A stretch of 63,738 nucleotides of DNA, filler included, from Reclinomonas americana ATCC 50394 (GCA_048213135.1; 8 parts of 5 records of this genome joined end to end with filler, not necessarily neighbours in it); one strand, 5' to 3'. Shown: positions 70 through 60,703, counted from the whole stretch's first letter. Notes: generated from the letters alone by a model not told the origin. Numbers and translations: made by a program.

Positions 70-2595
70 ATGTCCGTCAACCCGCCTGGACCTGACGCGC
101 AGTCTGGCAACGAGCCTGCGTTGCGTACTATACACATTGGTGGTCATGTTTCGTATTGCTGTATCCGGTGGGCTGACGTGTTTTGTTGGTCACAGGGCTC
201 TGGTGCGCAGCTTTGTGGTGCAGAATGGCGCCGAGCAGAGCCGCGATTTCGCGGTGTTTGCCGGTGGCCTGACCCGCCGCAACCCGTGGGTGTTTTGCTT
301 CCTGTGCATCATCACCCTCGGCTTCTACGCGTGCATGCGCAAGAAGCAAATTGGAGGATTCCTCGTCACCTCACGCCGTGTCATTCACATGTGAGCATTG
401 CTCGCCATCAATGCATGTATGCGTTATTTTGCCCATTGCTCATTTGTGCCATGGCAGGATTCTGACACTTGACGCCTCCAACAACATTGTCGAGTACGAG
501 CAGACGTCGTTCTTTGTGCGCAACTTTGCTCATGAGACCCACTCTTACACTCAGGTGCGGCACCCTTTGCTCCCTCTCTCTCTCTCCCTCTCCCTCTCCC
601 TCTCGCTCCGTGTCGCTCACTGGTTGTTCACGCAGCCCATTTACACTTGCGGCGACTGGCTCTGCTGCATTCCATGCTGCAACTGCATCTGCTTCTGCCG
701 CACCAAGCCTGTGCCGATGACCGAGGTCGACCTGTACTTCTTCGAGTACCCGAATCTCGAGGCCAAGGTCCGCGGTGGCAACGCCAGCCAGATTTGCATC
801 TCGTGCTGCCTGTGCTGCTGCAAGCCGTGCATTGAGTGCGCCTACAACGTGAGTTTTATTGTTTGTCTTCCCAGTTTTATTCTTCCTCCTCTGCCGGTCT
901 CTCACCTCCCCTCCTCCCCCTTTAACAGTGCTGCAGCAGCGGCGGTGCTCGCGTGCGCAAGAACCGCGCCTGGATGCGCATGGAGGTGGAGCTGCAGACG
1001 GGCATGCGCGACATGACCAACATGCTCGCCGCCATCCTGTACTACCACCCGGCCAAGTACACTCAGCGTGGCGTCAAGTGGGACCCGCAGCGCCCCGAGA
1101 CCCAGAACCACCCGCGCATTCGTGCCGTGGCGCTGGAGAAGACCGAGGACTACACGGTGTTTGACCGCGACCGCGTGGTGCCGCTCGACCCGGCCACCCC
1201 GACCAACCCGATCTCCACCTGGGGCCTCGTCGACGGCGAGCTGGTGTACGACGGCTTTGCCGGGCGCGTCCGCTTCTGCACTTGCACTGTGTGCATCCTG
1301 TCGATCATCACCCTCGGCATCTGGCTGCTCATCACCAAGATCAACTACGACAACTGCGCCAGCATTCGCCGCGAGTACTTCCTCATCACTGATCGCCGCC
1401 TCATCCGCTACACCCTGCACACCACTGGTGCCAAGTCGGTGCCGCGCCTGGTGCCGTCCAACGAGCACGGCGTGGAGGAGTTCTACCTGGAGCTCTCGTC
1501 CTGGGTCATGACCTCGTTCCACACCTACCGCTACTCGGAGGAGTCGAGCTGCATGGCGTGCTGCGGCCACTGCTGCTGCTGCCTGAAGAAGTCGTACTTC
1601 GTCAGCCTGTTCACCGCCTTTGGCAAGATCGTCATTGAGGGTGAGGGCGTGAACCAGACGGTGTCCACGTCCAGCGACAAGGACACTGCGCTGGAGGGCT
1701 TCCTGAAGGGCCTGATGCTGCAGCACACCGAGACGCCGCTGCTCGAGGTGCTTAACCCCGGCGCTCTGGCCATTACCCGCACCGACACGCACCCCTACCT
1801 GGCCGCTGAGGACCTCAAGCGCCCGGGTGACGACGATGACGTGCTGCTGCTCGATGCCAACCCGCAGAACCAGCATGGAGTGGTACGTGGTTGTTTTTTT
1901 GAGGGCGGGGATGCAAAAGGAAGAGTGAGCTAACTTGTTGTTGTTGTTGTGTGCACAGCCGCAAGAGGTGCTGCTGGCTCAGGTGTCTGGCCGCCCGTAC
2001 GGCAACTGCTGCGTGCGCTGCCTGTGCTGCGTGCCGTGCCGCCTGGTCACATGCTGCTGCTGCCCGCGCGAGAAGACGAAGGACCTGTACATCACCACTC
2101 AGCGCCTCATCACCAGCGCCACTGTGCGCACCCCGTGCTGCGGCCTGGTCATGGACAGCAACACCGAGTACTACGCTCTCCGCGTCGTCAAGCGCATCAC
2201 CTTCAACCAGTCGTACTGGTGCAACTGCGTCGGCGCCTGCTCATGCTGCCCCGTCTCGTACCTCGCTGTCGACACGGATCTCGACTTTGAGCACAGCCAC
2301 GAGGGCCACGAGACCTACACCATTGAGAGCATCACCGGTGTTGGCAACCGCGACAAGACCGGCGCCGACCGCAGCGCTGATCTGTCGCTCGAGGACAAGT
2401 TGCGTTTCTCAATCTTTATCCCATCCCTTCTCATCCACAGATACTGACTCTATTTCCGCAAATTCCAGGGGCCGCATTCTGGTCGCCGCGCTCGCCGTCA
2501 TGAACGTCCACGAGGATTGGATCATGCGCAAGCGCATCCTGGAGCACGGTCTGACCGCCCAGGTCGACACGGAGGTCGTGCCGGCTTACGTCTAA
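70..2595 (+). CDS. Multi-exon Cys-rich membrane protein with three repeated hydrophobic-segment + PH-like modules; function unknown
   Basis: Spliced ORF MSVNPPGPDAQ...VVPAYV* with GT-AG introns (e.g. 120-195, 2399-2468). Recurring motifs FLVTSRRVI, YFLITDRRLI and LYITTQRLI each follow a Cys-rich hydrophobic segment. Confidence 0.75.
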
Positions 2596-3036
2596 GCGTG
2601 ACGTCACGATGCTCATGTGCGGCGGTGTGGCATCTTTTCCCCTCGCCTGCCACCGACACGTGCAGTCTCTTTGTGCATCAGTTTTCTCTCCTTTCATTCT
2701 TTACTTCCGGTTGCCCGCGATCTTCCTCAGTTGCATCGTGTTTTATGTGAGCGTGCGTGCGTGCGGATTTATTTTATGAAGACGACGTGCTTTTTGCGTG
2801 CGAGTGAGTGTGAATGTTTGTGGTTTTGTGTGCGTGTGTCGGCAGTCCACTGAACTGATTTTTTCGGCTGCCTCGCGTCACAATCCTTTCTGTTTTCCTT
2901 TCTTGTCTTTTTTGAGAAGGAGAGAACTGTCTGTGTGTGTTTGCACTTATCGTCGTCTGGCCCCCCCCCGTCGCCCCCTCCACTTACTTTGGTATACATG
3001 AAAAGCGTTCCCTTCGACACCATTCGTGCACATTGT

Positions 3037-4076
3037 TCATGAGGGATTCGTCACACGGGGGGTCACACCGAGGTCGTCGACCGCCAAGCCAGAGACCGGT
3101 GGTGCAAATCCGCGCGACGACAGGGGTGGCATGAGAGAGTGCGAACCGACAGTGGCACTGGCAGCACCGCCCGTGCTCGAGGTGGCCATCATGTCGCGCG
3201 CCACGCGGAAGCACAGCATCTCAAACGTAATGTGCGTGCTGGAGCCCAGCTCGGCGCCAATGCGATCCACGGCGTCGAGGATCGGCTCCCACTGCGCGAG
3301 GCGACCGCGCTCCTCGGCCAACTCGCGTAACCGCACCGACAGCGACGCACATGAGGCCGCCATCGATGTGCTCAACAGACGGTCGGCCGACACCCACAAG
3401 TCTGCGAGCGGGAGGTGAGACGCGAGAACGGGAGACGCGAGAAAGCAAGAGCACGACACGGACTGACTCACCCATATCGACAAACCACAAGTAAAACGCG
3501 GCGTACATGTGATCAAAGAGAAACGTGGTCTCCCACACATCGACGCCGCCCGGCTGCATGTGCAGGAACGGTAGGAGATGATCGCGCACATCACTGGGGA
3601 AGTCCGGGGTCAACACGCGCAGCAACTCCACAAACTCAGGCAGTATCAACTGCGACTGCGATTGCGATTGTGATGACGAAGATGATGCACCGGTTTCGTC
3701 CTCAGTCGCCGCTGCTGCTGTCCCAGTCGACTCAGTGGCCGACGCTCCACCATTGTTGCGCGATCGCAACACGGAGAAACGCGCAAACACCTCAAAGAAA
3801 TGCCGACAAAAGGCGCGACGATTGTCGCGCCGCAACACAATGTAGCCGTACTCGCGGTGTATGATGTTGCTGCCAGTGACCACTGTAGCGAAACTGCAAG
3901 CACAGCAGTGAGACAGCCGGGAAAGGAGTGAGTTGTCTCGCACGTGTGCGCAACTAATCGGCAATCTCTCCCAGTGGATTCTCCTCGCGCGTCTCCAGCA
4001 CCGAGGCGACGACATCCTCCAGTAATGCCACCACCCCGTGCTGCTCAAGGTACTCGCGACCGCTCCCTGCTTCCAT
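3037..4076 (-). CDS. CSTPP1: CSTPP1/C11orf49-like (centriolar satellite tubulin polyglutamylase complex regulator)
   Basis: EYLEQHGVVALLEDVV...IADYFATVVTGSNIIHREYGYIV...NRRAF...EFVELLRVLTPDFP resembles recalled C11orf49 motifs. The 3' end is approximate. Confidence 0.7.
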
Positions 4077-4134
4077 GTCAGCGTCACGTCGTCGTCCCGC
4101 ACACTGTAGTCCTGTGCCGGCTAACACCAAATTT

Positions 4135-6060
4135 ATGGCTGACTTGTTGAGCCAAGACGCGGCGGCGGCGGCGGCGGCCATCACCGCTGCCATGGCTGCC
4201 GCGTCGGCCAGCGATTCTGCAAGTGGCGGTGGCGATGCTTCAAGTGCCGCTGCGCAAGACGAGGAAATCCCGCAGGCGGACGACGATTATGATGATGCAG
4301 TTGCGTGTGTGTGTGCGTGTGCTTTAATAAGGGGAGCGAAGCGCAGGGGAGGTGGCGAGAGAGAAAGCGTGTGTGTTTTGTTTGTTGGGGGACATTTCAC
4401 ACTGGCCGTTTTGTTTCTCTTTGCACGAGCCGTGTGGTTTTCGTGCGTGCGTGTATTCCCATCCGTCCCATGCCTACACTGCCTCTCCTCTCCGCGCACG
4501 CCATTGCGTCGCAACTTTGTGTGTCTTGTCTGCGGGAAATGTCACTCCTTATTGTGCCAGCGCCGCTTGCTCACTTTTTGTGTGCGTGCAGGCTGCGAGT
4601 GGCAGTGGTGGCGGCAATGGTGGAGACCGCGTGAGGACACTGTTTGTGTCGGGCCTGCCTCCGGATGCCACGGATCGCGAGATCCACTTGTTGTGCCGCA
4701 CATTGAACGGCTACGAGGGCGGCTCCGTGAGACCCACAAAGAAGGGAGTTGCGTTCTCTTTCCCCTCGTCCTCCTCCTGCTTCTCCTTTGCATTTGCTCA
4801 TGTGGTGGTGTGTAGACGTGTGCGTTTTTGCGGTTCCTGTCGCACGAGCAAGCGTTGGGCGCCATTGAGCATCTGCAGGTTTGCATGTTGTTGTTGTCAG
4901 AGAGTCGCTGTGCATAATGTGTTCGCTGACGGTGTGTGCGTTTTTGATGGCAGGGTGTGGTGTTTGACCCGAATTCATCGCTGCGGTTGCGCGTCGAGGT
5001 GGCCAAGAACGACATGAGAACAACGGTGATGAATCCGAAGCGCGGTCGCGACTTTGAATCGTCGTCGTCCTCCACGGCGTATGGTGTGTTTTGCGTGCTG
5101 TTTTGCTGCTTCTCACCGTCTGCTGCGTCGACTTACCGCTCTGTTGTGTCGATGCAGCCACGTCGTCGAGCAGTGGCTACCACAGTGCGTACTCGAGCGA
5201 TCGGTACGACGAGCCAGAGTACAAGCGACGCAAGCCCATGGGAGCCAGTGTGTACCAGGATCGCAGTTGCGTAACACGTACACTCTCTGCTCTCTCTTCC
5301 CCTTTTCTGTTTCCTCTTCCTCTCTATCCATCTATCCCGCACAGCAATTCTCCAGGCAGCGCCATCACAATACACCATTGTGTCGAAGCGTGTTCATGCA
5401 CTGTGCTAGAGCAAACCAAAAAAAGTGTCCACGCTATCTCGCCAATGAGCCTCTGAGCCATGACCTGTCGAGACGACTGGTTACACTACATTCTTTCCTT
5501 CATCCTCGAACTCCTTTTTTTCTTTTCCTGGTCATCTCTGAACACTTTTGCCATTGCCTCTTCCCTTGTCGTCTCACCCTCTTCGTTGCTGTTGTTGGTT
5601 TGCCCTTGCTAGGTCGCATGTCGGCCTACGGCTCTGGATCCAGCGGGATGGCACCTCCACCCGCCATGCCGTCCATGTCGCACTACGCGGTGCCACAGGC
5701 CGCTGCCCCGCAGATGATGCGCGGCGGTCCAGTGAGCTCCGACTGGTACTCGCCAGCCGAGTCCGACTATTCGGCGGCCGCTGCCATGCACGCCGGTCAC
5801 AGCCAGTACGTGACGGTGAGTGTGTGTTGTGTGTCTAGTGGTTCTGCATTGGTTGATCGCTCCCCTCACATTGCCTGCCCGCCAAGCAGCACCCGGTGCA
5901 GCACGACATTTACGGACAGCAGGCCGCCGCGGCAGCCGCCGTCGCAGCGTCCATGCAACAGCAGCAAGTGCACCACTACCAGCACCAGTCAGTGGGTGCC
6001 CCGAATTCAGTGTCCGCCGCCGCGGCAGCAGCTGCGGCTGCCGCTGGCGGCGCCAAGCGT
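4135..6060 (+). CDS. RRM RNA-binding protein, RBPMS/couch potato/MEC-8-like; 3' end lost in gap
   Basis: Spliced VRTLFVSGLPPDATDREIHLLCRTLNGYEG...GVVFDPNSSLRLRVEVAKN followed by an Ala/Gln low-complexity tail. Confidence 0.8.
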
Positions 6061-6816: not shown

Positions 6817-7556
6817 TCCTTCCTCCTCACCTTTCTCGATCTTCTCGAGACAGCTCTGCACGAGCTCCACCTTCTTTCCGAAATCCCTATGCTGCAGTCG
6901 TATCCGCATGTAACCTGTTGTTGTGACGGTGATGGTGGCGCTCATGAGTTTTCTCGTTGCGTAGGGTTGCGCGACGCGGGAGGGAAGGAACCAACGTTCT
7001 CCCCCCAACGCAACAGGAGCAGAGGCCTCGCAAGAAATCGAGGCCTTGGAAGGCGAACTCGCGGTCGGCGTTGGCGTTTGTCGTAATAAAGCGCATGACC
7101 TCACCACTCAGATCGCCCAGTCCCAGCAGATAGTCCGTATCATTGATCACAATGGCAAACGACTGCCACCACCACCACGACACCGATGAGTGACGACACG
7201 ACAACGAACACGTGATGGTGGTGCACGCAAGAACAGGAAACCTCCTGGCACTCGGCCTTGGTGATGAGTCGGCCAGTGGTGATCCAATGGAAGAAGGAGC
7301 GCGCTTCGACGTACTCCTGCACGCCCATGGAGAACGAACCCGAGTGCCTGCGAGGGGAATGAGATGCCGCGATGCAGCACACCATAAAAAAAAAAGATGG
7401 CCAAACAAGACGAAGCTTCCAGTAGCTGTCGCCCTGCAACCCCTCGGCCACACTCGTCGCAATGCCATACATGGTCTCGAGACTGCTCAGCACACGCCGA
7501 CACACTCCGCTCTCCAGTGGTTTGCGTGTCGGCAGACTGTGCACGGCCCTGTCAAC
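6817..7556 (-). CDS. TSNAX: Translin-associated factor X (TRAX), internal fragment between gaps
   Basis: FSMGVQEYVEARSF, DYLLGLGDLSGEVMR and KKVELVQSCLEKIE motifs. Confidence 0.85.
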
Positions 7557-7954: not shown

Positions 7955-9162
7955 GGTGGCCGTGGCGTTCCTAATTGGCCTGACCAGCACCAATGTTGAG
8001 TGCCATGCTGCAGACGTGCTCACTCTACCTCTCTGAATTCTCATCGCCGTCTCTGTGCGTCCAGTGGTACTCGAGTTCCGCGCACAATCTGTTGAACTTC
8101 CTGCTGTGGGCCCTCCTCAACACGTCGTGGTTGATCTCCGGTATTCCGATCATTCGAGGCTACTTCAAGTGGGGCCGCACGCGATATTCCACTGTCGACC
8201 ACAGACGGCGTGCGATTGAGCGTGCGTTGTTCCCGTCTGGACGCCTGGAAGAGGTGCTCGCCAATCAAGAATCGAGGTGCGACCCTGCTTCGATGTCGTT
8301 GTCGTGTACACACACCTCATCTTCGTGCTGTGTTCCTTCGCAGAGCACTCTTTCGCCAGTTCCTGGTGCGTCACGACACGTAGTCGCAGTGCGCTGAGTT
8401 GCTGGTTTGTCTCACTTGTTGTTCCCTGACACAGGTCTCCGAATTCAGCGTGGAAAATGTTGCGTTTTTTCCCCTGGTGTTGCTTGTTTGTCACGTCCGG
8501 GCAGACCGACCGTCCATCTCCGCAGTTGTGGTTCCTGGAGCGCTTCGAGGTGTACCACAAGCTGTGCAGGCGATACTCGCAGTCGCATGGCGATGATGTG
8601 GCAGCGCGGATCAAGACGCTGGGTCGGCAGATGTACACTGATTTTGTGAGCGTCAATGCGCTGCACGGCCTCAATTTGGCCATTATGCTGGCGGCACCGG
8701 TGCGGCAGGCCGTGCAAGATCACGGTGACGAAGCCTTCTTGCCTCTGCAGTATCGGGGCTCTGCACAGGCGCCGCGCAGCAGCTTTATCGAAATGTCCTC
8801 GGTGCCGCTGACGGCCGCCGGGCTCGATGCGGACGAGGCCGAGGGCGGCATCGAGACAATCTTTGACGACATTTCGCGATATGCCGTGATGGTCATGCAG
8901 GTGCGTCGGCGGTCGTGACTCTTCGACAAGTTTTTTTGCCCTCGCGTTTTGTACTCACTTGTCTCTTATGTGGCCGTCACACATGCAGCAAGACTCGTTC
9001 TGGTTTGTCTCCCTACCCGTGCTCTCTTTCCCAATATTCTCATTTGCTGACGGCCTGTGTACGCGTGTGTGCAGCCGCTTCCTGGAGTCAGACGACTGGC
9101 GGAAATTCACAAGGGGTAGTTCCGCGCAACTCATCGCCGCCAAGGCTAGTGCATACATATAG
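7955..9162 (+). CDS. Membrane-anchored RGS-domain protein (7TM-RGS-like); 5' part in gap
   Basis: Hydrophobic segments (VAVAFLIGL, NLLNFLLWALLNTSWLISGIPII) precede spliced RALFRQFLVSEFSVENLWFLE...MYTDFV...LNL...IFDD...QDSFCRFLESDDW, an RGS box. Confidence 0.75.
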
Positions 9163-9204
9163 GTAAAGAGGAGAATTATGACAGTGTGTGTTTATATAGA
9201 GATT

Positions 9205-12200
9205 CTACTTCATGCGAACATAGCAGCGGACGTCGGTGACAAACTGCACCAACGCTTTCCTAAAGTGATGCTTCATCTCGCTGGTGATGGCGGCCTGCGG
9301 TAGCCTCGAATGTGTTGGCGACGGTGCAGTGGCCACAATCAGCAGGCGACTGAATGCCTGCTCCACGGGTTCTCGGTAGCTGTCGTGCAGCACGTAGCCC
9401 ATCAACTCAGCGGCCAGAGCGCGGAACGAACCCTGGGTGGAGCAGCAGAATGAGAAGAAGAGGAGGAACGCAAGAAGCACAACTGCACATGCGTCGTCGT
9501 GGCAAACCTCGTCGGCAAGCACGAGAGCCAGCATGGCGTCGGCGGCCTGGTCCAACAGATCCGAGTTCACGTCCTCAAACACCAACATGTTGAGCAGCTG
9601 ATGCTGGAAACGCGAGAGTGCCGGTGGCTCCGATTGGAGAAGCAGTGGCACGCCACCATCTGTGAACGAAGGGGGTGTGAGAGACCGAAGCAAAGTGCAT
9701 CGTGCTGTTGCATCCACTCACCGGCTTGGTAGCGCAAGTGGTAGAATACGAGTGCCGCAAGCGCCTCCAGCGCCAGCTGGCACACTTTGCCATTGTGTCT
9801 GTGCGATGTGCTTGTCGGTAAGGTTCCTTTTGCGCACAAGGTGGACAACAGCAGCAGCAGTGCACAACGCAACAATTGGCGAAGACCAAACTCGATGCCA
9901 GACATCACATGCCCGAACATGTCAGCCGGCAACTCGGCAACACGCTCGGGGAACACCGTGGTCAGATAGCGCAAAAAGTGGAAGAACTCCGACGCCAGGT
10001 TGGGGTACTGTTTACGCGTGTGCGCGTGTGTGTGCGAGTCAGCAACAGCAACAAGCGTGGGAAACCGCACGAGCAGCGACAAACCTCGAACAGCTCCGGT
10101 CGCAGCAGTGGCATCAGTGTCGCCAGGCCGAAAAAGACGACATGTGCCACGGTCAGCTCACCCTCGGCCACGGCCTCTGGCGCAGCAGCTAGAATAGAAA
10201 AGCAAGTAATGTCAGCTACGACCGCTGCGTGCGTCTGCTTTTGTTACGCAACGGCCATCCAGCGAGAAATCGAGAAAGTCCTTGTTGAACAAGTGCGTGA
10301 GCATCTTTAGCAGAATGATGAGGTCCGTGATTTGCTCATCGTCTTCTGACTCCACTTGCTCGTGCGACAACCGTGCTGGTGCGGACCGACCTTGAGTAAT
10401 GTGCGCCACAATGAGGCGCGAGAAAGAAAAAGGAAAAGGCCGCAAGAATGAGGCACACTCACTCACCAGTGTTCTGGCGAGAGTACCACTTGAGAACATC
10501 CGTACAAAGTGCATACACCAGCTGCGTGTGCGTGTTGGGCACGAGCACAAACTGCACATAGCGCACGAGATTTAGCCTATCCGAGTCCATGCCGTCGTCA
10601 TTCACCGATGCTGTCGCAGTGACGCACCTGGATGTCGACCATGTCGCACACCAGCTGCATGACCAGCGTCGTCACTGGCGAGTACATGTGGAACACTTCC
10701 AGCAAATGTCGCAGAATGATGAAGAATTCAGTCAGGAACAGGAAGAGTAGCTCGGCCACACTCGAATCCGAGGCCAGTACAGTGCCGCGAAGCATTTCCA
10801 ACAGTGCCTGAATCGTGGACTGCGCGATAAAAGTAAGCTGACATGCAGCGATCGAGTTCTCCCCCCTGCTGTGATTCGCAATCGCACCTGCGTCGCAGGC
10901 GAACTTATAGACTGCGCAAAGTCGTCAGCCGACACCACAGCGACAATCCGTTCCTGCAGGCACAAGGAATAAGTCGAGACGGATGCGCATGCCGTCCGCT
11001 TTACAGACGTAACTCGCAGTGGGGTGAGTATTCTGAGAAACGCCTGCTCACTCTCCTCCCGCCGATCAGGCGACGAGCACACGTGACAGGCGGCCACGAC
11101 AAGCGATCTGCACAACAGCAACAACAACAACAATGCACAACTCAGAGAATGAAACGACGCGTGGCTCGGCAGTCAGTGGTGGCCGAACCTTCGAATGTTC
11201 AGTGGATGACTGGCGAATGTGCCCTCGAAGCCGACATTGGCCAGCGCCACCATCCACCACGAGTCTGCGGTGCGTGTGAGTGAGGCGAGTGTGACAGACT
11301 GCAACTGTGCACGGCCACGCACCCAAGTTGATCATGGTGTTGCCGATGGCTTTCCGCTTGCTCAGCGAGATGAGCAAGTCGCACAACTTTGCGAGTGCGA
11401 GGGACAGTAAGAGCACAGCACGGCCACAAGGAAGCGCGTGACACGGCCGAACCTTGCCACACAGCACGGGCTCGGTGGGCAAACATCGGAAAATCTCATA
11501 GGCCAAATGAAGAACGACTTGCACGACGTGCACGGCACCATCGCACTCGGGACCGTACAGCTCGCCAAGTGTGGGACTGGGGAGGATGTAAGAGAGAGAG
11601 TGTGCGCCAGCGAGCGACGGGGGAGACCGACCAATAGTGCTCGTATTGTGAAATGTCTGGCATGAGGTACGTGGCCGCCCATCGCTCCAGAAACACACAG
11701 AGAACCTCCAACACACGCGGACTGGCCATTACGTGCTGCGTGCCGTGTCAGGGTGAGAACATGCCCGAGAAGTGCATGGTGGCGATGCAAGTCAACAGAA
11801 AAAACCTGCGAGTAGTGCGTCAACAGGTCGGCCACAAGCGATGCAAACTGCACAATGCCATTGGAGATGGCGACCAGCGGATTTCCGTCTGCCGGAGTCT
11901 GTCAACAGTCGCCCCGATGAGTTGGAGCGACGACATGATGGTTGGGAAAGACGGCGAAACACAACTTCGCGAGACATGTCCAGAATCGACCGCGGCACCA
12001 TCGGCGTCTCACCATCGGGCGAGTCCGCCAACACCGCAGTCAGCAGTCGCAAAAGCCAGTAGATGTCCTCCAGCATCTCAATACTGTGTACCGGTCCGTT
12101 CTCTGTTGCCGATGATGAGTCTTGTACTGTCCCAAACAGGACTGCCCCCGAAGGACCAACACACCGAGTTCCACGAGCATTGCTTCGGGTGGGGTTTCCG

Positions 12201-14417
12201 AGTGCGCAACAACAGAAAATGCATGCAAGCGTGCCGACAACAGCTTCCACACGTGTTCCAGGCTGACGTATGGCGAAATACGAGCAAAGGTGGCCACTTG
12301 GTCCAGCTGCGCGACGATACGACGGGGGATGATCAGCAGTGGACACCTCGTACTCTCTTTCCGTAGCACACCCCGCTTGTACCTGTGCGTCGAGAAGCGC
12401 CTGCTCGTCGAAAATCTCCGCGCCCGGATCATCCTCGTCCAGATTCAACTGCAATCGACCCTTGCGCAAACGTGCATCCACGTACGTCTGGAAAATAAAG
12501 GTCGCACATTGCGGCACTGCGGCGTCCACGGGCACATGCGACGTGGCCAACAACTCCACATCGACAGCTGCCGGGGGTGACGAAACAGAGTGAGTGCGCG
12601 TTCGCCCACAATCTCCACACACCCAGCGGCGCCCTCACCGATGAATGCCCAACAGTCCAGCAGCACATCAAAACTCTCCAGCAACCACGTCTGTTCGACG
12701 TCGTCGGCGGGCGGGTGGAGGGTGAAACAGATGAGATCCATCATGAACGACAGCAGTGGCTGGAAGCACGGCAGCTGCGTCAGCTTCTTCAGCGTCAGGT
12801 TTTGCACGCAGCGCAGCAGAATCTGCGACACGTCGAGGAGCTCGGTCGAGCGCAAGTCCTCGTCCAGATCAGCAGGCGCACTGACAGCAATGCAACTCGA
12901 TGAGGCGCAGTGGTTTCGACGGGAAAAAGAAAAAAGTGAGCGCGCAACTGCTGGTACCACTCCATGACGCCCGTCAGCAGCGACGACATGAACTGGAGCT
13001 CGTTGTTGAGGTCCGCAAAGATGCTGCCGCGCAGTGACGCCATCTGCATCATGATCTCACACAGGGTGTGCGAGGTCGTTGGCTCCGCACGGGCGAGCTC
13101 GTGTGCCTGCATCCTTCGTGAGCGAACGGCAAAACAGCAGCAGCAAGCCGAGCAGGCAGCGGACCTTGAGAAACAGAAGCAAGACCGAGTCGTTCGCCAC
13201 CAAGTCGTGCCACGCAGCGCCGGGTTCCACAAACGACGTAGACATCTTGACCTGACCGGAGCCGACCGACGGCGACATGAGTGCACGCAGTGAACTCGAT
13301 TCTGCGTGCGCACAAACGCGTGAATGTGGAGTCGCACAGCTCGGTTTCGCACACAACAACGCTGGAGTCACCTTTGCTCTCCATGAAATCCCACGACAGA
13401 ATGTTGCCGAGCAGCGTTACAGTGTGCGCAAACAAGTGCGCGTCATCCTCTCGCACAGTCCCGTCGACTGCCGAGGTCACCACCTGATGCAACAGTTGCA
13501 ATGCGACGCTAAACGAGCCATGCAAAAAGCTCTCCTGAAACGAGGCGCGTACTGTCGCGTGAAAGTCCCACGACACGCCCATCCGCGACCCCGACACTGA
13601 GCAGAATTCCGTGACCAGTTCCGAGATCAGAATGGTGCCGGCCAGTTTCTGATGGACTCGCACCGACGAGATCAGCGTCGACGCATGCCCCACGTCTGAG
13701 AGAGAGAGAGAGAGACAGGAAAGCTCACCATCTCACTCGTCTCCATCTCCAGCAACGCGCTAATCTGCGAATGCAACACATAGTGCTCCTCGTCGGTCGT
13801 GTCGAGCCAGTCGCGCTTGATCATCAACGCCAACGCACGTGCCGTCATTCGACTGACTGTGCGTTCTCCCACGCTATATACATGCACACACTGATGGTGA
13901 ACGACGATGCGCAATGAGAAGAGACGACAACAACAGCGACGACGCACCGTGGCGCCACATGCACGAGATACGTCATGAGGAACCCGCGCAACTCGGCGCG
14001 AAACTCTCGTGTCAGCAGCGGCCACACACGCATGTACACCTCCGGCATGGCAGAGAGCGCCTGCATGAGCGCATCGGACTCCCTCGAGTGTGCTGCGTGG
14101 GGGCGCACGATCACAATCATCCCCAGCATCATCCTCTCTCAGTCAACGATGATCGCTATCTCACCGACAATGTAATAGAACGCCACCAGGCTGTCGTTAT
14201 CCTTGCGCCACTCCTGCAACGCACTCTGCGCCGAGTGCACCATCGCTGGGTTCTGCACATCCACACATACACGAGCGCGCGCGAAATCAGAGACAAGTCG
14301 CACACAGACATGTGGATCGAAAAAACGGCAACGCACTCGCAGCGATCGACTGGCCGCCTCGAACTCGTGCCGAAACGCATCGAGCTTCTCGTCGAACGGC
14401 GGCCCGCGTTCCTCCAT
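9205..14417 (-). CDS. XPO4: Exportin-4-like karyopherin (many introns)
   Basis: ALALMIKRDWLD, ILISELVTEF, MGVSWDFH, NILSWDF, EDIYWLL..LAD..DGETPMVP, LFNKDFLDFS, QYPNLASEFF. Confidence 0.8.
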
Positions 14418-26474: not shown

Positions 26475-26918
26475 NNNNNNNNNNNNNNNNNNNNNNNNNN
26501 NNNNNNNNNNNNNNNNNNTTAATTAATTAANNNNNNNNNNNNNNNNNNNNNNNNNNNNNNNNNNNNNNNNNNNNTGTGTGGGCCTGTACGAAAACGATAT
26601 GTGTATTGTAATAGTAATCTCTCTCTTCTCTTTCTCTCTCTCTCTCGATCTCTGTGTTTGATTTTTGTTGTTGTTGTACTACCGATTTTTTGTACTGTTG
26701 TTGAACCTGTTTATTCCCTGTTGTGGTTCTCTGTTCTCCCTATGTTGTGTGTAGTGTGGGTAGCCGCGCGTGCAGACTCATGCGCGTGCATCCTCGTTGA
26801 ATTCCTAACAAGTGTAGATACAGTTATTATGGGGTTGTGGAAATAGCACATTGTGAGGCCAACGGATTCATTGCTACGCGACATTGTAAAGGCGACGCTG
26901 GAGCCTCACCCCCCCTCG

Positions 26919-38381: not shown

Positions 38382-38522
38382 NNNNNNNNNNNNNNNNNNN
38401 NNNNNNNNNNNNNNNNNNNNNNNNNTTAATTAATTAANNNNNNNNNNNNNNNNNNNNNNNNNNNNNNNNNNNNNNNNNNNNCCACCACCACCGCCGCCGC
38501 CGCCACCACCACGGCCAACACC

Positions 38523-42073: not shown

Positions 42074-42681
42074 ATGGCGAAGTTGCGTGCGCCTGCTCAT
42101 ATCGCACACGAAGGAAAAGAAAGAGAGAACAGCTGCATGCGTGTTCAAGTGTGGGGGTGTTTGTTTGTGTGTGTGTGTGATCGCGTCATCTCTCTCACCG
42201 CACTCTCTTGTTGTTGTCACGTCGCTCTGTGTGTGCGTGCGTGTGTGCAAGCGTGAGAGACAAAGAGAGAACACGCGCACAATTTGATGTGTGACATGAT
42301 ATGTTTGTGTTTGTTTGGCCCAACTGTCAACTTCTTGTATCACTGACTGCTCTTGCTGTCGCCTTTTCGTGTGTGTTTGGTTGTGTTTTCGTGTGTGTTT
42401 GCAGATACGGCGACGCAGAGTACTGGCAAGATCGGTACAGGAGGGACCCGGAACCCTTTGGTGAGTGCGAGTGTGTGTGTGCGCGGGAGACTGCAAGAAT
42501 AGAACACACTTGGAGTGAGAGAAGAAAGGGGAGGAGAAGAGAGAATAGGGGGCAAGGGAGAGGAAAGAGAGAGAAGAGGAGACAAGGGAGAGGTGGGCTA
42601 CTTGCAATTCCGTACTGTTGTAATCTGCGCGGACTTTTTGCTCTCTTCTCCATCGTTTGTGCTGTCTCCCTTGCTCTTCTC

Positions 42682-42731
<50 letters not shown>

Positions 42732-46846: not shown

Positions 46847-46929
46847 CTTGCTTTCTCTCTCTCTCACTCTCTTCTCTTCAAGCACAAGAGTCACAGGGCG
46901 ATTCGTACATTCTTCCGTCCTGTCATCTT

Positions 46930-49056: not shown

Positions 49057-49059
<3 letters not shown>

Positions 49060-49142
<83 letters not shown>
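49060..49142. repeat. (CA)n microsatellite at contig end
   Basis: Perfect CA run abutting the gap. Confidence 0.98.
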
Positions 49143-49242
49143 NNNNNNNNNNNNNNNNNNNNNNNNNNNNNNNNNNNNNNNNNNNNTTAATTAATTAANN
49201 NNNNNNNNNNNNNNNNNNNNNNNNNNNNNNNNNNNNNNNNNN

Positions 49243-49927
49243 CCCTCTCTCTCATCCTCTCACACACACACGCGCGCACCCAATTCGTGTGCCCTTTGCA
49301 CGTGGCCATCGGCGTCTCCATGTTCAGATCCCACAGACGCACAGTCGTATCCCCGGAGCTCGACGCCAGCACCTGCGAGTCCGGCGAAAACGCCACACAC
49401 AGCACCGACTCGGTGTGCCCCGGGAGCGTGGCTGTACACCTGGTGACAGCACGCACTCGAAAGACCGCCTGCGGCTGAAACAGAACCTGCACGACGCTTT
49501 CGCCACTGGCGTCGGCACTGTGGGGCACAACTGCGCATGAGAAGGAGAGAGACTACGCCAAGATGCAAATGCAAGACAGTCGACGGAACCTGCTCGACTT
49601 TTGCAGGGCCTCCAACAGCTGCTTCTCCACCTCAACCTCTGCATCCTTGCCCACAAAGAACGAGTACGGAGTGTCCTCCTCGCTCGACAGCAGCGAATTG
49701 ACCAATTGTCGCAGCTGTGTCACATCCGTGTCGGCACGCAGCTGCAGTGGCGGGCCAGCCACATCGCCTGCGACAGCGCGTGGTCAGAGGCGCGTGGAGC
49801 CCCAAAAGTGGATGCGCAGAGAGAAGAGAGACGAACCTGTGTCACGACTGACCAGCTGCACAAGCAGCTGACGATCGGATGCCTCACTCGACACCACCTC
49901 CGGGACTGCACCAGATGAAGAGGCCAT
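49243..49927 (-). CDS. NLE1: Notchless/Rsa4 ribosome biogenesis WD40 protein, 5' fragment
   Basis: NLE domain QLRQLVNSLL..TPYSFFV, FQPQAVFRVRAVTRC, GHTESVLCVAFSPDSQVLASSSGDTTVRLWD. Confidence 0.92.
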
Positions 49928-50489: not shown

Positions 50490-51223
50490 ATGTCAGAGCT
50501 GATCCCGCAAGAGGTGTCCGACGAGTACTTTGGCTTGCGCGAGAATTGTTGAGTTCTTGTCTCAGTCTCCAACTCTTACTCTCCTCTCCACTCTCCTCTC
50601 AACTCACCTCCCTCACCAACCCCCACACAGTGCCGGTGGATNNNNNNNNNNNNNNNNNNNNNNNNNNNNNNNNNNNNNNNNNNNNNNNNNNNNNNNNNNN
50701 NNNNNNNNNNNNNNNNNNNNNNNNNNNNNNNNNNNNNNNNNNNNNNNNNNNNNNNNNNNNNNNNNNNNNNNNNNNNNNNNNNNNNNNNNNNNNNNNNNNN
50801 NNNNNNNNNNNNNNNNNNNNNNNNNNNNNNNNNNNNNNNNNNNNNNNNNNNNNNNNNNNNNNNNNNNNNNNNNNNNNNNNNCGACGATCAGGCGGTGAAC
50901 TGCTGCGTCTCTTCACCACACCACACTCGATTGGTGGCGGTGGCGGTGGTGGCAGTCGACGATCATCCGCTGCCGCCGCCGCCGCCCCTGCCCCATCACG
51001 ACCATCAGCATCAGCAACAGCAGGAGCAGGAGCAGGAGGCAGTCGAGCAAGTGGCAGTGGGACAAGTGCGAGTAATCCGAGCGAGGCAGAACTGGAGGAA
51101 CAACTGGCGGATCCGTCGCTGTCGGCAGCCACACGGTGGGGACTGGAGAAGCAGCTAAAGGTGCTGCGTGCGGCGAATGCTCGTGCGCTCAGAAAGGCGC
51201 GCGAAGAAGGAGGCCGTGAGTGA
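50490..51223 (+). CDS. Uncharacterised protein interrupted by a gap
   Basis: MSELIPQEVSDEYFGLREN exon and terminal exon ...EAELEEQLADPSLSAATRWGLEKQLKVLR...GRE*; linkage assumed. Confidence 0.4.
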
Positions 51224-54169: not shown

Positions 54170-54300
54170 TCGTCAAAAAAGGCGAAGAACACCACAAACC
54201 GGACAAACATTGATTATCATCAGCTCTCTTTTATCTCACTCTCGTTTGTTTTTCGCCCATCGCGTCTGAGCGCACGCACGCACGTATCCATCCATCCGTC

Positions 54301-57300
54301 ATGGGCAACACGGCCACGAGTCAGGCCGTCATTGAGCGCTTCCACCGGCGCCAGCAGGAGCAGCACGCGGCCGCAGCGGCGGCTGCGACTGCCGCCGCCG
54401 TCTCCTCCCCGCCCGCCTCCTCTCACATGGACGTGCAGCTGCAACACATGCGCGAGGACTCGCCACCATCATCCTCGGCCACGCACTCGTCAGTGTTAGA
54501 ACGAGGCCACTCGGATGGACGCATGACAGGCTCCAAGGTACGCAAGAGAGAGAGATGTGTGCTGAGAGAGAGCCGCTGAACATGCATTTCATGCGCGCAG
54601 GGCTCGCTGGCGTCTGCGGTCGGCGGCAGTGGTGCCGGCAGTGGGTTAGGTAGCCTGCGAGGTGTGGATAGGCGTGGATCGCCGACTGGGATGCCGAGCA
54701 GCGCAGGCGGAGCGGGCAACGGATCGAATGCGTCGTCCGCGTTTGGTGGTGGCGGTGGCAGTGGCGCACGGCGGCAGTCGTCCATGGACGTGATTCCCAT
54801 GATCCTCGGTGCCGCACGCCGTGTCAATGCGCATCATCGACAGGTGCGTGACGTCTTTGTGTGTGCGCTGCCGCCGCAAATACACTCATATCATTGCGTG
54901 TTGTAGGTGTCCGCTGGCGTCAACACGTCGGCAATCACGGTGGCCACCAGCAGTGCCGCGTCGTCGATGAACAAGCCGGTGTTGAATGCGGAGCCGGTGT
55001 CGTTTGACGAGGCGGTGCGCATGCTGCACGAGGACGATGATGCGATGTTTGAAGATGATATGGATCCCGTGGAGACGGCGTCGGCGGCGCGTGGCGGACA
55101 GTACCTGCGGCCGTCGGCGGCGGCGGCGGCGCGTGCGAGTCGCGCGTGGCGTCGGGCGAGCGTCACGTTTGAGTTGTGTAATCGGTGCGGGAATGGGCGT
55201 GTGTGGGGTGTGTTGGTCTGACGAGTGGTGTCGCACAGCCTGGAGGATCTGTCGACTGTGGTGAGCGAGGAGATGGAGACGGACGACGGAACACGGTGAG
55301 TGGTGGTGGTGGTGGTGGCGGTGCTTTTCAGTCTGCAGCTCATGTGTGTGCGTCGCGTGCAGAACACCGGGTTCACCGCGCGAGAATCGCGGCATGCTGC
55401 GTCTCGAGGACTTGCGGGTGAAGCTGCCGCCGATTGTGCACGAGCCGGTGCAACCGCGGCCGGTGGTGGTGGCTCCTGTGGACCCAGTTGCGTCGTGCGA
55501 ACCGGGTAGCACCCAGGAGCGAGCGAGCTCACTTTCTTGCGCAGGTGGTCACTGAGGAGATGAAGCAGAACAAGCTGGCGCTGCTGAAGAAGAAGCGCGA
55601 CGCGCTCAAGTTTCGTCTCACTTCCCCCCTCGCCTAGTCCATCTCACTCACTCACACTCGCGCGCGCCACAGGGTCAAGGAGAACAAGGCGGACCCTTCG
55701 GAATCGGCACCCACTGCGACCAGCGCCGCCGCATCGTTCCGTCTCTTTCCCCTCCTCTGTCGCTCGTTACGATCGATTGCTTCTCACTGTTTTTTGGTGT
55801 CGCGCGCAGATCCGCTCCGGGTGAGCTGTCGTTGGCACTGCCAGGCGCAGACGCCAGGTTCGCCGCGTGTATCCTCATAATCTCTCTTCATTTCTCCACT
55901 CTCACACGCTGCGTGTTCGTGCAGAGCCAGTCTGGCCGAGGCGTTTGGCGGTCCTTCCAAGCGCATCAGTTCGCCCATTGCCATGGCCCAGAACATTGTG
56001 CAGCGGCGACAATATGCCGACTCTGACGGCGCGCAGCTTGCCCAGCCATTCTTCCTCTCGGTGCGTGTGTGGTGTTTTCCGCTGTCATGTTTTTTTATTG
56101 CGCGGTAGCTCACCTTTTCTTTCATGTGCACAGCCGCCAAAGCCCGAGGAGGAGGTTGAATACGACAGCGAAGACTACGACCCCGAGGATCAGGTTGGTG
56201 TTGTGTCGGAATTATGTGTGGTTGCGATGATGCTAACGCGCGCCGCGCGCAGACGGGTCGTGAGGAGGACGGTTCCTCCGAGTACGAGATTGTGTACGAG
56301 GAGTACGAGGAGGAAGTGGAAGTCAGCGATGACGGCAGTCTGCGAGCGTCGCCAGCGCGCGATCGTGCATCCCCGCGCTCTCGTGTGCAGCAACAAGTGC
56401 AAGACGAACGTCGTGTGGAGGTGGTGCAAAAGAGTGCACCAGTCTCCGCCGCTGCGCCTGCAGCTGCTGCCGCCATCGCGGTGGAACACACAGACTCTGT
56501 CGAAAACTTCTCGCCCGTGTCATCGGCCGCCGTTCCAAGCTCGCCGGCGTTGTTCATTGACGTGAACGATTCGCCTCCGCGGTCACCTCCACGGCCGCCA
56601 GTGGACAGGCCGCAGGAGGAGTTGCCGCCGTTGCCAGCGTTGACGAGCACGCCGNNNNNNNNNNNNNNNNNNNNNNNNNNNNNNNNNNNNNNNNNNNNTT
56701 AATTAATTAANNNNNNNNNNNNNNNNNNNNNNNNNNNNNNNNNNNNNNNNNNNNCTGGCACCGAGCAGTACTTGGAGCCGCGGCGGCTGCACGGCCGTCA
56801 ACCGAGTTCCGATGTCACGTTTGAGGACCTGCCGGCGCCTCGCATTCCGACCTCGGATAACCGGCCGACGTCGTTGTCGGGCGAAACCTCACACACTGTG
56901 TCGCCGACGATTGAGGTGTGTTTTTCAATCGCTATGATTGTGTTGTTGACTTTGTATGTGTGTCTGTGCCCTCAAAACCTTCCTCGGTGCAGACTCGACG
57001 CCGTGCGGCCTCGGTCGAGATCTCCGACCTGGTACCGGAGGCCTTGCCGACATACATGCCGGACCGCACACCACCGCGCGTGCCGCCCGTGTTCTCGTCA
57101 CCGTCGCCCACCATTAGCATCTTTATCAGCAATCAAGCCAATTCTGTCACTCAAATCTCACCACCGTCGCCACGCGCCGATTCGTCGTCGTCGGAGAGTG
57201 GCGACTCGGCGGGCTCGGAGCGTCTCGCTGCCATTCCCATTGTGGACGTTGCGTGCACTCCACAACCCCCTTCACGCACTGGCTGTTTTTTTCGCCGATG

Positions 57301-58151
57301 CTGATTCTTGCTTTCCTCCACAGACGGTGCACAAGGAGCACGTCTCGTGGGCGACAGTCGCTCTCTCCGACGTCCGCCTCCCGCCCACACTCGTGCAGCA
57401 GCGGAAACCCTGCTTTGACGAACCGGCCGTCATTACGCCGGCGCGGGAGAGTGCCGCCTATGTTGGTGTCGGCCGCGTGTCGCCAAGACGATCGACTCGT
57501 GCCACTCCACTGATGCGCGACCGCTCCAAGAGCCCGCTCGGTCGCGGCGTCAGCCCACCGTCATCGAGCCGCGGTCGCGGATCGCGCAGTCCACGACCGG
57601 CACAGCGCGACATTAGCCCCCCGCTCGCATCGCCGTTCACCTCCACGGCACCCGTGGCCATGCACCCAACTCCAACGTCGGCCATTCGACCAGTGCGGCT
57701 GTCGTTTGGCGACGTGGCCGGTCGTCACCCACGCCACCGACACGTGGACGCTGGACGACCTCCAGAGCGACGCGGTGTCTTGCATGTGACCGCTCGCAGT
57801 GCGGCCGCCACACCAACGCCAACACCATCATCTTTATCTTCGTCTTCGTCGCATCTCGCTCCGATTGCCCACGCTCCACCACAGCCGCCGCGTCGTGACA
57901 GAGGGCAGTCGCTGTCGGCGCGCGCCACCCCAGTGGCCCCGTCGCAGGGCACAGTGCAGCAGCAGCGTCCGGCGGCCGCGTCGCCCGAGAGAGCAGCTGT
58001 GGACGCCGCCAAGCGCCGACACGCAGCGTCGTCAACAGCACCAGCAGCAGCAGCAGTCGCTCCGGCAGCAGCGAGTCGGGGCAGTGCGAAGAGCAATCGG
58101 CCGTCGCCATTTGTTGCCAATTATCGGCCACCAGAGACCGTCAGCCAATGA
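54301..58151 (+). CDS. Large low-complexity Ser/Pro/Arg-rich protein with possible N-myristoylation start (MGNTATS); spans a gap
   Basis: In-frame exon chain with GT-AG introns. No family recognised. Confidence 0.55.
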
Positions 58152-58285
58152 CGTGTCGCTCTTTGTGTTTCTTGTTTCTCAAATTAAAAAAAGCCAACTG
58201 TAAAGACTCCTTCTACGTGTGTGTGTTGTAGTTGTAGTAATATACTTGTCAAATGAGCATAAAAGAGACGGATTCAAGAAAATCG

Positions 58286-60703
58286 TCAACGCAGACCGCC
58301 GTCGGCAAAATGGCATGCGTGATATAAGGTGTGCATCATGTTCACGCTCCCTCTCGGCAGCGCTGGAGTCTCATTTTGACTTTTCGTGCGTTGGAGAATC
58401 TGAGGACAAACGAGTGAGCAAGAGAGGGGCAGAGGGTGGGGCACGGGCACGGCAGGAGACGCACGAGCATCGTCGTCGTTGTGGAGAGAGCGGATGTCGT
58501 GGAGTTCGACTTGCGAGCGACGGAGTGCTACATCGGTGGGGATGGTCGATGACAGCGGCTTGACCTTGATCAAACGCGCCAGGAAACCTGTGACAATTGC
58601 CCGTGAGTACACACACACGACAACTACACACACACTTTCGCACACAGACAACCACGCACCAACTGGAATGCTGAGAGCGGCAATGAAAATTGCGACAATC
58701 CATTGCGTAAACGTGAGCGGTACGGTGGAGGTGGCGTGCTCCGAGCCGAACTGCACAATGAGGAACTGGGCGACCAGAGTGAAGCCCATCACAGCCATAA
58801 ACATGGCGCTCTTGGTGATGTTCTCGAACACGTTCATCTCTGCAGCAGCGACAGCCCGTGTCAGACACGAGCAAACACACACCAAGACGAAAAGTAGACT
58901 CGAGCACGCACCGTCGTTGACCTTGCGTGCGTTGATCTCATTGACCAACTGCAACAACACAAACGTGTTGAAGATGATGGTGTTGAGGATCTTGGCATCG
59001 AGATTGATCTCGCCATTGACGAGTCCGGGGCTGAGACCGAAAATACGGGCACCGCCGTACTCCAGCACAAAGAGCACAATCAGCTGGAACACCGAGTGCA
59101 CGGCAATGTTGCGGTACATGATGGAGGTGATGAGGGCGTCGAAACGGCCGTACGGCTTGCGCTTCAGCAACGATGGGTTCGGGGGTTCCGTGGCCAGAGC
59201 CAGCGCAGCGAACGTGTCCATGATGAGGTTGACCCACAGCAGCCTGCATCGCCAATCGACTGTGAGGACGAGTACCCGAGTTAAGTGGCGAGCAATTAAA
59301 AACGCAACTGAATGGCGGTCAGCGGCAGCGACTCGCGTTGGGCCAGAGCAGAAATCAGCGTCACCACCAGCGCCACCACGTTGACGGTGAGCTGGAACTG
59401 CAGGAACTTGCGAATGTTCTCGTACACCGAGCGGCCCCACAGGACGGCGTTCACAATGGACTTGAAGTTGTCATCCAGAATAACAATGTCAGACGCCTCC
59501 TTCGCCACCTCGGTGCCAGACAGACCCATTGAGAGACCCACATCGGCGGCCTTCAGGGCCGGCGCGTCGTTTGTCCCGTCACCCGTCACCGCAACGACCT
59601 ACAGGTGATCAATCAAATACAAATGAGCACAGACAGGAGAGTACAGACAAAGCAACGCGCACGGTTCAACGCACCTCGCCGAGGTCGTGGAGGCGGTTCA
59701 CGAGCTTCAACTTGTCGACCGGAGTGGAGCGCGCCAACACGGTCAGGCGAGCCAGGGCACGATCGAGTGCCTCGCCCTCGAGGTCGCGGAATTGCTGACC
59801 CTCCATGGCCTCATCATTCGGTCCAAGAATGCCGCACTCGGTGGCGATGGCGCGCGCAGTCTCAATGTCTGTCACGAGCACAGACATCAGCACCATCATA
59901 CCCACCCGGCGAGGAAAATCTACCACATGCGCACGCAACTGTCACCAGTAACCATGCGCACAGTAATGCCGGCCTCCTTGCAGCGGCGAATAGCATCGGT
60001 GACCTCCTTGCGCAGCGGATCCTGAATGCCCACAATCGCAATGAGCGTCATGTCGTCCTCCGGGGCCTGCTCCAAGTCCGAGTACTCGGGGAGCAGTGTC
60101 GGAATGTCGCGGTACGCAATGGACATGGTGCGGAACGCTGTTCGATCACACGCAATGAATGAGCATTTCGACCNNNNNNNNNNNNNNNNNNNNNNNNNNN
60201 NNNNNNNNNNNNNNNNNNNNNNNNNNNNNNNNNNNNNNNNNNNNNNNNNNNNNNNNNNNNNNNNNNNNNNNNNNNNNNNNNNNNNNNNNNNNNNNNNNNN
60301 NNNNNNNNNNNNNNNNNNNNNNNNNNNNNNNNNNNNNGCAACGCACTCTCACGACCCACCACCAAGTCACAAACGCAACAAGCATGAGCCATGGCCGAGA
60401 TCACGGTCTCCTCGAGGTAGTGGCGAGTGCGATCGTCGAGGTTGGCAACTTGACCATTCGGCATCAGGAACTTGGAGCAGCGGGCGAGGATGATCTCCGA
60501 GGCACCCTTCGAGTAGAGGCGGTATCCACCAGTTTCCAACTGCACCAGTGTGCTCATGCGCTTGCGGTCGGACGAGAACGAGTACACTTGCGGCACAGCG
60601 TTGCGGAGGTTGTATGCGCGACGGCAGGCGGCGTAGTCGTAATCCAGCTCTTGCGACAGCAGCAGCAGGGCACACTCGGTCTTGTTGCCTTGGTACTCCT
60701 GCG
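58286..60703 (-). CDS. Plasma-membrane-type Ca2+ P-type ATPase (P2B), 3' part
   Basis: [83 protein letters not shown]. Confidence 0.93.

Follow-up and report, generated by a model that had tools for sequence, protein, structure and literature searches.

A second, one-base-shifted class of 5' splice sites among predicted introns of Reclinomonas americana

Introduction

How can 5' splice sites be used if the conserved core of the intron start lies one base further downstream than usual? This question is raised by a stretch of DNA from Reclinomonas americana ATCC 50394 (the window; 63,738 bases, 59% GC, 3,479 N), for which a preliminary description had listed 32 intron starts with the common donor core displaced by an extra T, leaving the conserved G at +6 instead of +5. 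The pattern GTT-NN-G-(T/C) is present at all 32 coordinates. The analyses described below suggest that these shifted introns belong to the ordinary U2-type GT-AG introns and differ in using a second, common donor layout, H/GUUGCGU, in which H denotes a base other than G and the slash marks the exon-intron junction, and that this layout is read by U1 in a register shifted by one base; the probability of this reading is put at roughly 0.55. The main new result concerns the exon side, where the signal is displaced by one base at position -1 as well.

The window contains seven identical linkers of the structure N44-TTAATTAATTAA-N44 at positions 18170-18269, 26475-26574, 38382-38481, 49143-49242, 56655-56754, 60704-60803, and 62601-62700, in which TTAATTAATTAA is a six-frame stop spacer. 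Thus, separate contigs have been chained, genes flanking a linker need not adjoin in the genome, and all frequencies given here refer to 64 kb of concatenated contigs and not to the whole genome. Pfam matches in the window comprise the C-terminus of a P-type Ca-ATPase (PMCA), importin-alpha, Tubby, RPB3, and a flavin amine oxidase, which are typical eukaryotic genes, and the closest homologues of the encoded proteins are 48-63% identical.

Two classes of donor sites

Introns were predicted with a dynamic-programming gene finder in which coding sequence is scored by three-periodic Markov models, introns run from GT to AG over 30-700 nucleotides (nt), and acceptor, branch, and length contribute further terms; in its final form, it was self-trained and contained a first-order donor model. 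Training converged, and the result comprised 31 gene models, 29 of them intron-bearing, with 131 predicted introns of 71 nt median length. Canonical donors with G at +5 account for 86 of these introns, and a further 28 (21%), found in 15 of the 29 intron-bearing models, have T at +3, a base other than G at +5, and G at +6. The proposal of a second, common class of donors is thus supported for the window. The remaining donors combine G at +6 with a base other than T at +3 (5 introns) or show none of these patterns (12 introns). The combination of T+3 and G+6 is more frequent than independent positions would allow, with 28 observed vs. 6.2 expected cases: donors with T at +3 carry G at +5 in 20 and G at +6 in 28 cases, and for all other donors the respective numbers are 66 and 5.

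The core of the shifted class is sharp, with G at +4 in 23, C at +5 in 23, and T at +7 in 25 of the 28 donors. The corresponding positions of the 86 canonical donors are G at +3 (55), C at +4 (40), and T at +6 (58). Relaxed register control in the spliceosome, which had been offered as one possible cause of the shifted donors, is not needed as an explanation since their core is more constrained than that of the canonical donors. Such a tighter core is expected if a mismatch must be offset.

The commonest donor heptamer among the 131 introns is GTTGCGT (n=17). On both strands of the window, this heptamer occurs 30 times vs. 7.9 times expected from composition. Replacing the first base gives heptamers that are three to five times less frequent (ATTGCGT 10, CTTGCGT 6, TTTGCGT 7), and variants in which a different base is inserted also have lower counts (GTAGCGT 1, GTCGCGT 11, GTGGCGT 19). 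Gene-finder donors coincide with 17 of the 30 GTTGCGT copies, and three more copies had been listed in the preliminary description (17-20/30); only 17 of 125 GTGCGT copies are used as donors. The inserted base is nearly always T, as GTAGCGT, GTCGCGT, and GTGGCGT serve as predicted donors in 0/1, 0/11, and 1/19 cases, respectively.

At the 32 listed sites, the heptamers are GTTGCGT (19), GTTGCGC (3), GTTGAGT (4), GTTTCGT (2), and GTTACGT, GTTACGC, GTTGTGT, and GTTCCGT (1 each), preceded by A (16), T (11), C (5), or G (0) at position -1. The self-trained gene finder placed donors at the exact listed base of 23 of these sites and additionally predicted a GTTGCGT donor at 55487 on the plus strand. 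Self-training could favour what had been learnt, and therefore a control run was made in which only G+5 donors entered the donor position weight matrix (PWM) and all other GT sites received one equal floor score. Of the 141 introns from this run, 66 had floor-scored donors. The shifted pattern was found in 24 of these 66 donors (14 GTTGCGT), compared to 306 of 7567 floor-scored GT sites in the background (30 GTTGCGT; p=4e-17). The control run added the listed sites 11013 and 27732, resulting in 25 of 32 sites predicted in either run. Seven sites (7014, 7995, 50548, 19749, 30652, 21441, and 42082) were predicted in neither; 7014, 7995, and 50548 each adjoin an N gap, and reading frames cannot decide 19749 and 30652 because these would be in-frame introns without a stop codon.

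Without any donor model, the gene finder was noisy and returned 173 introns in models scoring at least 40, with GTGCGT (13/173) and then GTTGCG (9/173) as the top donor hexamers. In a validation by open frames and a branch regular expression, decoy dinucleotides passed at a rate similar to that of GT sites (1114 of 8094), and the top rank of GTTGCGT in it (14/30) comes from a test that failed in this respect.

Position of the junctions

All 28 shifted introns in the gene models have GT-AG ends and restore either the reading frame or a homologous protein, and for seven of them the junction is backed by homologues. In PMCA and importin-alpha, every donor/acceptor pair at most 21 nt from the predicted site, with any dinucleotides, was compared with 13 homologues each. 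In each of the ten introns examined, the prediction coincided with the best-scoring GT-AG pair, which ranked 1-4 among 239-617 pairs with a score gap of 0-23 points to the top.

Several of these junctions had been placed in conserved protein motifs by the preliminary description. The PMCA intron at 59869..59939 (minus strand; A/GTTGCGT) was assigned to TGD(N)IETA; its donor at 59939 is part of the unique best of 576 pairs, GT-AG not being assumed, and TGDN is restored. Judged by the homologous sequences, this junction is fixed to the nucleotide. The second PMCA intron (59244..59308, minus strand; A/GTTGCGT), for which AIQ/LLWVN had been given, reaches the top score and is the sole GT-AG pair among the tied offsets. 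In importin-alpha, the intron at 40250..40323 (minus strand; C/GTTGCGT) yields the expected QFEA/AWSLTN and has the top score among 617 junction pairs, which it shares with one TT..GT pair only, and the intron at 38964..39035 (minus strand; A/GTTGCGT) is the only GT-AG pair compatible with the 13 homologues. In RPB3, the proposed junction ALHD/EFIAHRL (27973..28062, minus strand; T/GTTGAGT) was also confirmed, as, in an alignment with human RPB3, the exon before 28062 covers residues 30-61 and the following one begins at residue 62; the same abutment is seen in the plant and yeast chains. The remaining two junctions belong to a histidine acid phosphatase gene on the minus strand, in which the introns at 46461..46533 (T/GTTGCGC) and 46022..46082 (T/GTTGCGT) represent the best GT-AG pairs, scoring 945 vs. 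a top score of 968 (617 pairs) and 936 vs. 937 (612 pairs), respectively.

Pfam scans of 20 flanking exons one by one gave coarse support only (RRM, RPB3, His_Phos_2) and nothing for 14 of them. A metagenome scan with a PMCA exon led to 80 loci, of which the best reached 80% identity and lacked an intron in this position, so that no relative was obtained for comparison.

The pattern could in principle be an artefact of chance motifs or mis-modelled genes, with the true junctions lying elsewhere. The gene models were self-trained, seven of the 32 listed sites appear in neither run, and 42082 lies without coding context. Against this stand the seven homologue-supported junctions, one of them nucleotide-exact, the p-value of the control run, and the position of 17-20 of the 30 GTTGCGT copies at predicted intron starts, which make an artefact very improbable.

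Shared machinery and intron type

Apart from the donor, the two classes are alike. The branch motifs CTCAC, CTGAC, and CTCAT occur in both, the median distance from branch to 3' splice site is 19.5 nt in shifted and 21 nt in canonical introns without a significant difference, and intron lengths are 70.5 vs. 71.5 nt. GC content, pyrimidine content, and acceptor do not differ, and both donor classes are mixed within the same genes.

U12-type introns are similar insofar as they also form a second class with its own sharp donor motif that is interspersed with major introns in the same genes. The U12 consensus is RTATCCTT for the donor and TCCTTAAC for the branch site. Both are absent here, and branch motif, spacing, and length are those of the canonical class. 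With GTTGCGT as donor and with the branch motif and spacing of canonical introns, the shifted introns are not of the U12 type. A family of introner-like or otherwise repeated introns was also ruled out, as pairwise identity over positions +9..+40 has a mean of 26.1% and a maximum of 50%, compared to a mean of 26.6% for canonical introns.

The exon side of the donors

Rare human 5' splice sites are reportedly read by U1 in a +1 shifted register, a finding attributed to Roca and Krainer in 2009. In this register, the consensus after GU lies one base further downstream, so that G occupies +6 in place of +5, and the last exon base acts as -2. According to the accessible text of PMC4856993, the +1 shifted register, with U1 C9 opposite G+1, C8 mismatched to U+2, and the remaining pairs slid by one, has been established in human cells.

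The exon side of the donors in the window fits such a displacement. G is found at -1 in 76 of 86 canonical but only in 2 of 28 shifted donors (Fisher p=2e-15), and the shifted -1 column (A14 C5 G2 T7) resembles the canonical -2 column (A38 C15 G11 T22). When exon positions -3..-1 of the shifted donors were scored on the canonical columns, the log2-likelihood was -158.6 if they were slid by one, -234.1 in the bulge-aligned arrangement, and -172.5 for background. Since the shifted -1 copies the canonical -2, AG/GTGCGT and A/GTTGCGT can be regarded as one 8-mer that varies between G and T at its third base, and the cut falls before whichever GT the 8-mer holds. The likeness to the shifted register of Roca and Krainer, to which the preliminary description had pointed together with bulged pairing, is therefore apt, and the exon-side statistics favour the shifted over the bulged alignment by 75 bits.

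In a bulged register, U1 would pair canonically with -1, +1, and +2, one U of +2/+3 would bulge out, and pairing would resume from G+4 to U+7. Bulges at +2/+3 are described for human donors with 68 predicted sites (Table 3 in the accessible part of PMC4856993), the two adjacent U residues make the bulge degenerate, and the cut site would need no special explanation. The human sites (Tan et al. 2016, PMC4856993, as far as the accessible text describes them) also begin with GUU, followed by the remainder of the consensus displaced by one base, and look identical on the intron side; however, they keep canonical pairing at -1. A bulge should thus preserve the -1 G opposite C9, which is lost here, at a likelihood that is 75 bits worse, and it should tolerate inserted bases other than T, which are hardly ever used. 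Furthermore, RNAduplex with a standard U1 yields a bulged pairing for none of the 28 donors. The shifted register fits the donors and a simple bulge is contradicted; the bulged register is therefore already disfavoured and considered unlikely.

The intron phases also differ between the classes (12/3/13 for shifted vs. 42/28/16 for canonical introns; p=0.006). This bias does not constitute independent evidence because the requirement for non-G vs. G at -1 would produce it in coding sequence.

Recognition by U1 and U6

From the sites, junctions, frequency, and exon-side statistics, we infer which RNA reads the shifted donors and how the U6 step would proceed. The most likely reader is the 5' end of U1, which would bind A-G-U-U-G-C-G-U in the register of the canonical A-G/G-U-G-C-G-U. 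The first G of the intron would take the place of the last exon G opposite U1 C9, U+2 would form the single mismatch (U1 C8), and U+3, G+4, G+6, and U+7 would replace U+2, G+3, G+5, and U+6, with the T at +3 pairing with U1 A7. No other GU being available, cleavage would then be placed there, presumably by the tri-snRNP (small nuclear ribonucleoprotein), which is one base upstream of where the canonical cut lies in this register, and U6 would have to tolerate one extra nucleotide between this GU and the G-U that is normally paired. It can thus be proposed, tentatively and at odds clearly below even, that two registers are in routine use by the major spliceosome: a single U1, possibly with a 5' end that is non-standard and, for example, matches GUGCGU, binds AG(G/U)UGCGU, a U as third base moves the cut one base upstream, and U6 pairs with G+6/U+7 across a looped-out nucleotide. 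If this is true, it would represent a constitutive '+1' U6 register, which has so far not been described, and a fifth of the introns would depend on a register flexibility that is marginal in animals.

Several points weigh against U1 binding in the shifted register and against the underlying intron set. The latter was self-trained on 64 kb, and some of the 131 introns are surely wrong; the predicted junctions rest on homology and gene models. The two shifted matches with G at -1 (G/GTTTTGT and G/GTTCCGT) may be weak canonical donors, and the likeness of the shifted -1 to the canonical -2 could partly reflect coding constraints. Pairing energies are also unfavourable. With the standard U1 5' end AUACUUACCUG, which may not be the U1 of this organism, RNAduplex predicts a mean free energy (dG) of -6.77 kcal/mol for canonical donors, 80 of 86 in the canonical register, but of only -1.62 kcal/mol for shifted donors, with 11 of 28 in the shifted, two in the canonical, and none in the bulged register. 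A set of 1000 random non-donor GT sites pairs better (mean -2.78 kcal/mol) than the shifted donors, and pairing with standard U1 alone thus does not explain their recognition. Finally, U6 normally pairs with G+5/U+6, and cleavage is always seen 5 nt upstream of this pair, or 4 nt upstream in STAT3, according to the accessible part of PMC11162779. The shifted class would need a spacing of 6 nt between cut and U6 pair, which is not reported in that part of the article, or would have to do without such a U6 pairing.

The U1 of this organism may differ from the standard. For the altered U1/U6 or variant snRNA (small nuclear RNA) suggested in the preliminary description, the weaker predicted pairing of standard U1 with shifted donors than with random GT sites would be an indirect hint. 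When U1 positions 4-6 are varied (64 variants), first rank goes to the exact complement of GUGCGU (-9.3 for canonical, -6.9 for shifted, and -5.4 for random sites), an ACGUAC-type U1 ranks second, and the standard end ranks twelfth, which hints in this modelling at a non-standard U1. A separate observation is that the majority donor consensus is AG/GTGCGT, in which the commonest base at +4, C (40/86), would mismatch standard U1. In Rfam searches of the window at gathering thresholds and at E<=1, no snRNA gene was found, and only nuclear RNase P and weak, microRNA (miRNA)-like chance matches were obtained.

A non-standard U1 could also exist as a dedicated variant snRNA, that is, an additional U1 or U1-like species whose 5' end complements GUUGCGU and binds in the normal register, with the main U1 serving GUGCGU and GUGAGU. 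The sharp heptamer, which shows no fuzzy relaxation, and the weak predicted pairing of the shifted donors with standard U1 would agree with such a reader. In addition, U1 5' ends are known to vary in some protists, with ACGUAC in Mastigamoeba and both standard and modified variants in Physarum (accessible text of 10.1101/2022.06.08.495308). However, a variant snRNA does not predict that the shifted -1 copies the canonical -2, and the consensus 8-mers of the two classes differ at one base only, as one reader in one register predicts. A dedicated snRNA is accordingly possible but rather improbable.

Alternatively, recognition could take place mainly after U1, with GCGU read by the ACAGA box of U6 or by proteins, one nucleotide looped out, and the non-G at -1 resulting from U5/Prp8 or coding preferences. 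This would be in line with the weak predicted U1 pairing and with the flexibility of U6 registers, for which a -1 register has been proposed in STAT3 (accessible part of PMC11162779), and the phase bias shows that coding context co-varies with the shifted class. U6, however, does not read the exon positions, yet the exon signal moves by exactly one base, and the canonical class in the same genes keeps a strong U1-like AG/GU signature. Recognition after U1 is thus an unlikely explanation, and U1 binding in the shifted register remains the preferred one.

Relation to known systems

A human test oligonucleotide, ACA/GUCAAGUAUA (PMC4856993, accessible text), follows the same logic as the shifted donors described here. 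Validated non-canonical registers together account for 1.5% of 201,541 human sites in the accessible part of the same article. Human shifted sites are thus rare exceptions, in contrast to 28 of 131 predicted introns in the window. Differences also exist in the core, which is GUUGCGU on a GUGCGU consensus here but is based on GUAAGU in human. In the window, one mismatch (U+2) separates the two classes, and the register is predicted from sequence.

A C at +4 of canonical donors, as in the GUGCGU-like canonical class of the window, is known with and without a co-evolved U1 (Roy & Bowser, 10.1101/2022.06.08.495308). In the accessible text of this source, the lineages concerned are Mastigamoeba, with GUGCGC donors and a U1 containing ACGUAC, and Thecamonas and Mamiellales with standard U1. 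That portion of the text makes no mention of a second, shifted class, and +6 is mostly T (58/86) and not C in the window. The tandem donor of STAT3 (PMC11162779, accessible part) is comparable in that the cut and the G-U paired to U6 are not separated by the usual five nucleotides. The distance there is, however, one nucleotide shorter (4) and concerns a single regulated site, whereas in the shifted class it would be one longer (6) and constitutive.

Literature searches in the full text of articles led to work on human non-canonical registers and to no organism with shifted donors as a major class; the genome paper of this organism might already describe the motif. In human splicing, shifted-register donors have so far been regarded as rare oddities. 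If about 1 in 5 introns of a genome is of this kind, with a sharp consensus and a corresponding change at the exon end, such a genome would be a natural system for the uncoupling of U1 binding from the choice of the cut and for the slack of U6. There is also a practical consequence: the shifted consensus scores -7.5 bits in the canonical PWM, and position-independent donor models of the majority class rate such sites below random, and therefore gene predictors would mis-build many genes here.

Shifted introns in the window

Besides the seven homologue-supported introns, the gene finder predicted the following introns with the shifted pattern. On the plus strand, the first one lies at 120..195 (C/GTTGCGT), which had also been listed in the preliminary description, followed by four with A/GTTGCGT at 2399..2468, 4300..4591, 4748..4815, and 5266..5612. 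The acceptors of the second and fourth of these are less certain at intron lengths of 292 and 347 nt; the intron at 4748..4815 is part of an RRM gene, with an upstream exon corresponding to positions 1-28 of RRM_1. The intron at 8459..8525 (T/GTTGCGT) had been described as part of an RGS gene with the junction SVEN/LWF; the intron itself is predicted, but the RGS label is not supported, as no Pfam family at all was found in the downstream exon. Further plus-strand introns are clustered at 55173..55238 (A/GTTGTGT), 55487..55544 (A/GTTGCGT, previously unlisted), 55610..55672 (A/GTTTCGT), and 55736..55809 (C/GTTCCGT), and another one is found at 57248..57323 (C/GTTGCGT).

On the minus strand, A/GTTGCGC donors were predicted for the introns at 3894..3954 and 12881..12948, T/GTTGCGT donors for those at 9799..9873 and 19879..19947, C/GTTGCGT for 10177..10252, and A/GTTGCGT for 32732..32806. 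Two minus-strand introns had not been listed before, namely 11899..11965 (A/GTTGTGT) and 19331..19394, the latter with a weak match to the shifted pattern (T/GTTCTGT). The matches with G at -1 are located at 36324..36382 (G/GTTTTGT), which is probably a weak canonical-type donor, and at 49518..49589 (G/GTTCCGT), the class of which is uncertain.

The two listed introns that appeared in the control run only are also on the minus strand. The one at 27647..27732 (A/GTTGAGT) is located in RPB3, where PDB alignments are compatible with it in a variable region, and the other lies at 10954..11013 (A/GTTACGT).

The remaining listed sites lie outside the gene models and are regarded as candidates. At 30652..30714 (plus strand; A/GTTACGC, 63 nt, in-frame), a junction GLT/AAR in a renalase had been claimed, which is plausible at most because the E-values of the PDB matches are not significant. 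Removal of this segment would create a dinucleotide-binding motif, GAGLAGLT-AARS, at the start of the flavin amine oxidase gene. The acceptor of this candidate is AAG; canonical introns end with CAG in 77 and with TAG in 8 of 86 cases. Open frames are compatible with introns at 19684..19749 (minus strand; T/GTTTCGT, 66 nt, in-frame), 21441..21514 (plus strand; T/GTTGCGT), and, next to an N gap, 6915..7014 (minus strand; T/GTTGCGT). The candidate at 7995..8064 (plus strand; T/GTTGAGT), also next to an N gap, combines a strong acceptor with open frames, and the one at 50548..50630 (plus strand; T/GTTGAGT) runs into an N gap. The GTTGCGT at 42082..42088 on the plus strand is a doubtful donor.

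Other elements in the window

The Ca-ATPase gene models at 58374-60700 (minus strand) are broken by an N gap at 60174-60337, and homologues cover the C-terminal half only, from about residue 450 of a 1005-residue homologue. As the linker at 60704-60803 lies directly upstream, the N-terminal half is encoded on another contig or is unassembled. A full-length gene for nuclear RNase P RNA (RF00009, 58.7 bits, E=2.8e-14) is present at 51272-51688 on the minus strand and ends 44 nt before an N gap. At 42555-42708, an imperfect inverted repeat with GA-rich and CT-rich arms of 30 nt (73% complementary) shows weak matches to several plant miRNA families on both strands, which are probably due to low complexity. 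An open frame of 766 codons at 22853-25150 on the plus strand has an even GC content over the three codon positions; no homologue was found for it among 8000 scored candidates, and a high-scoring gene model at 21840-25505 spans this open frame.

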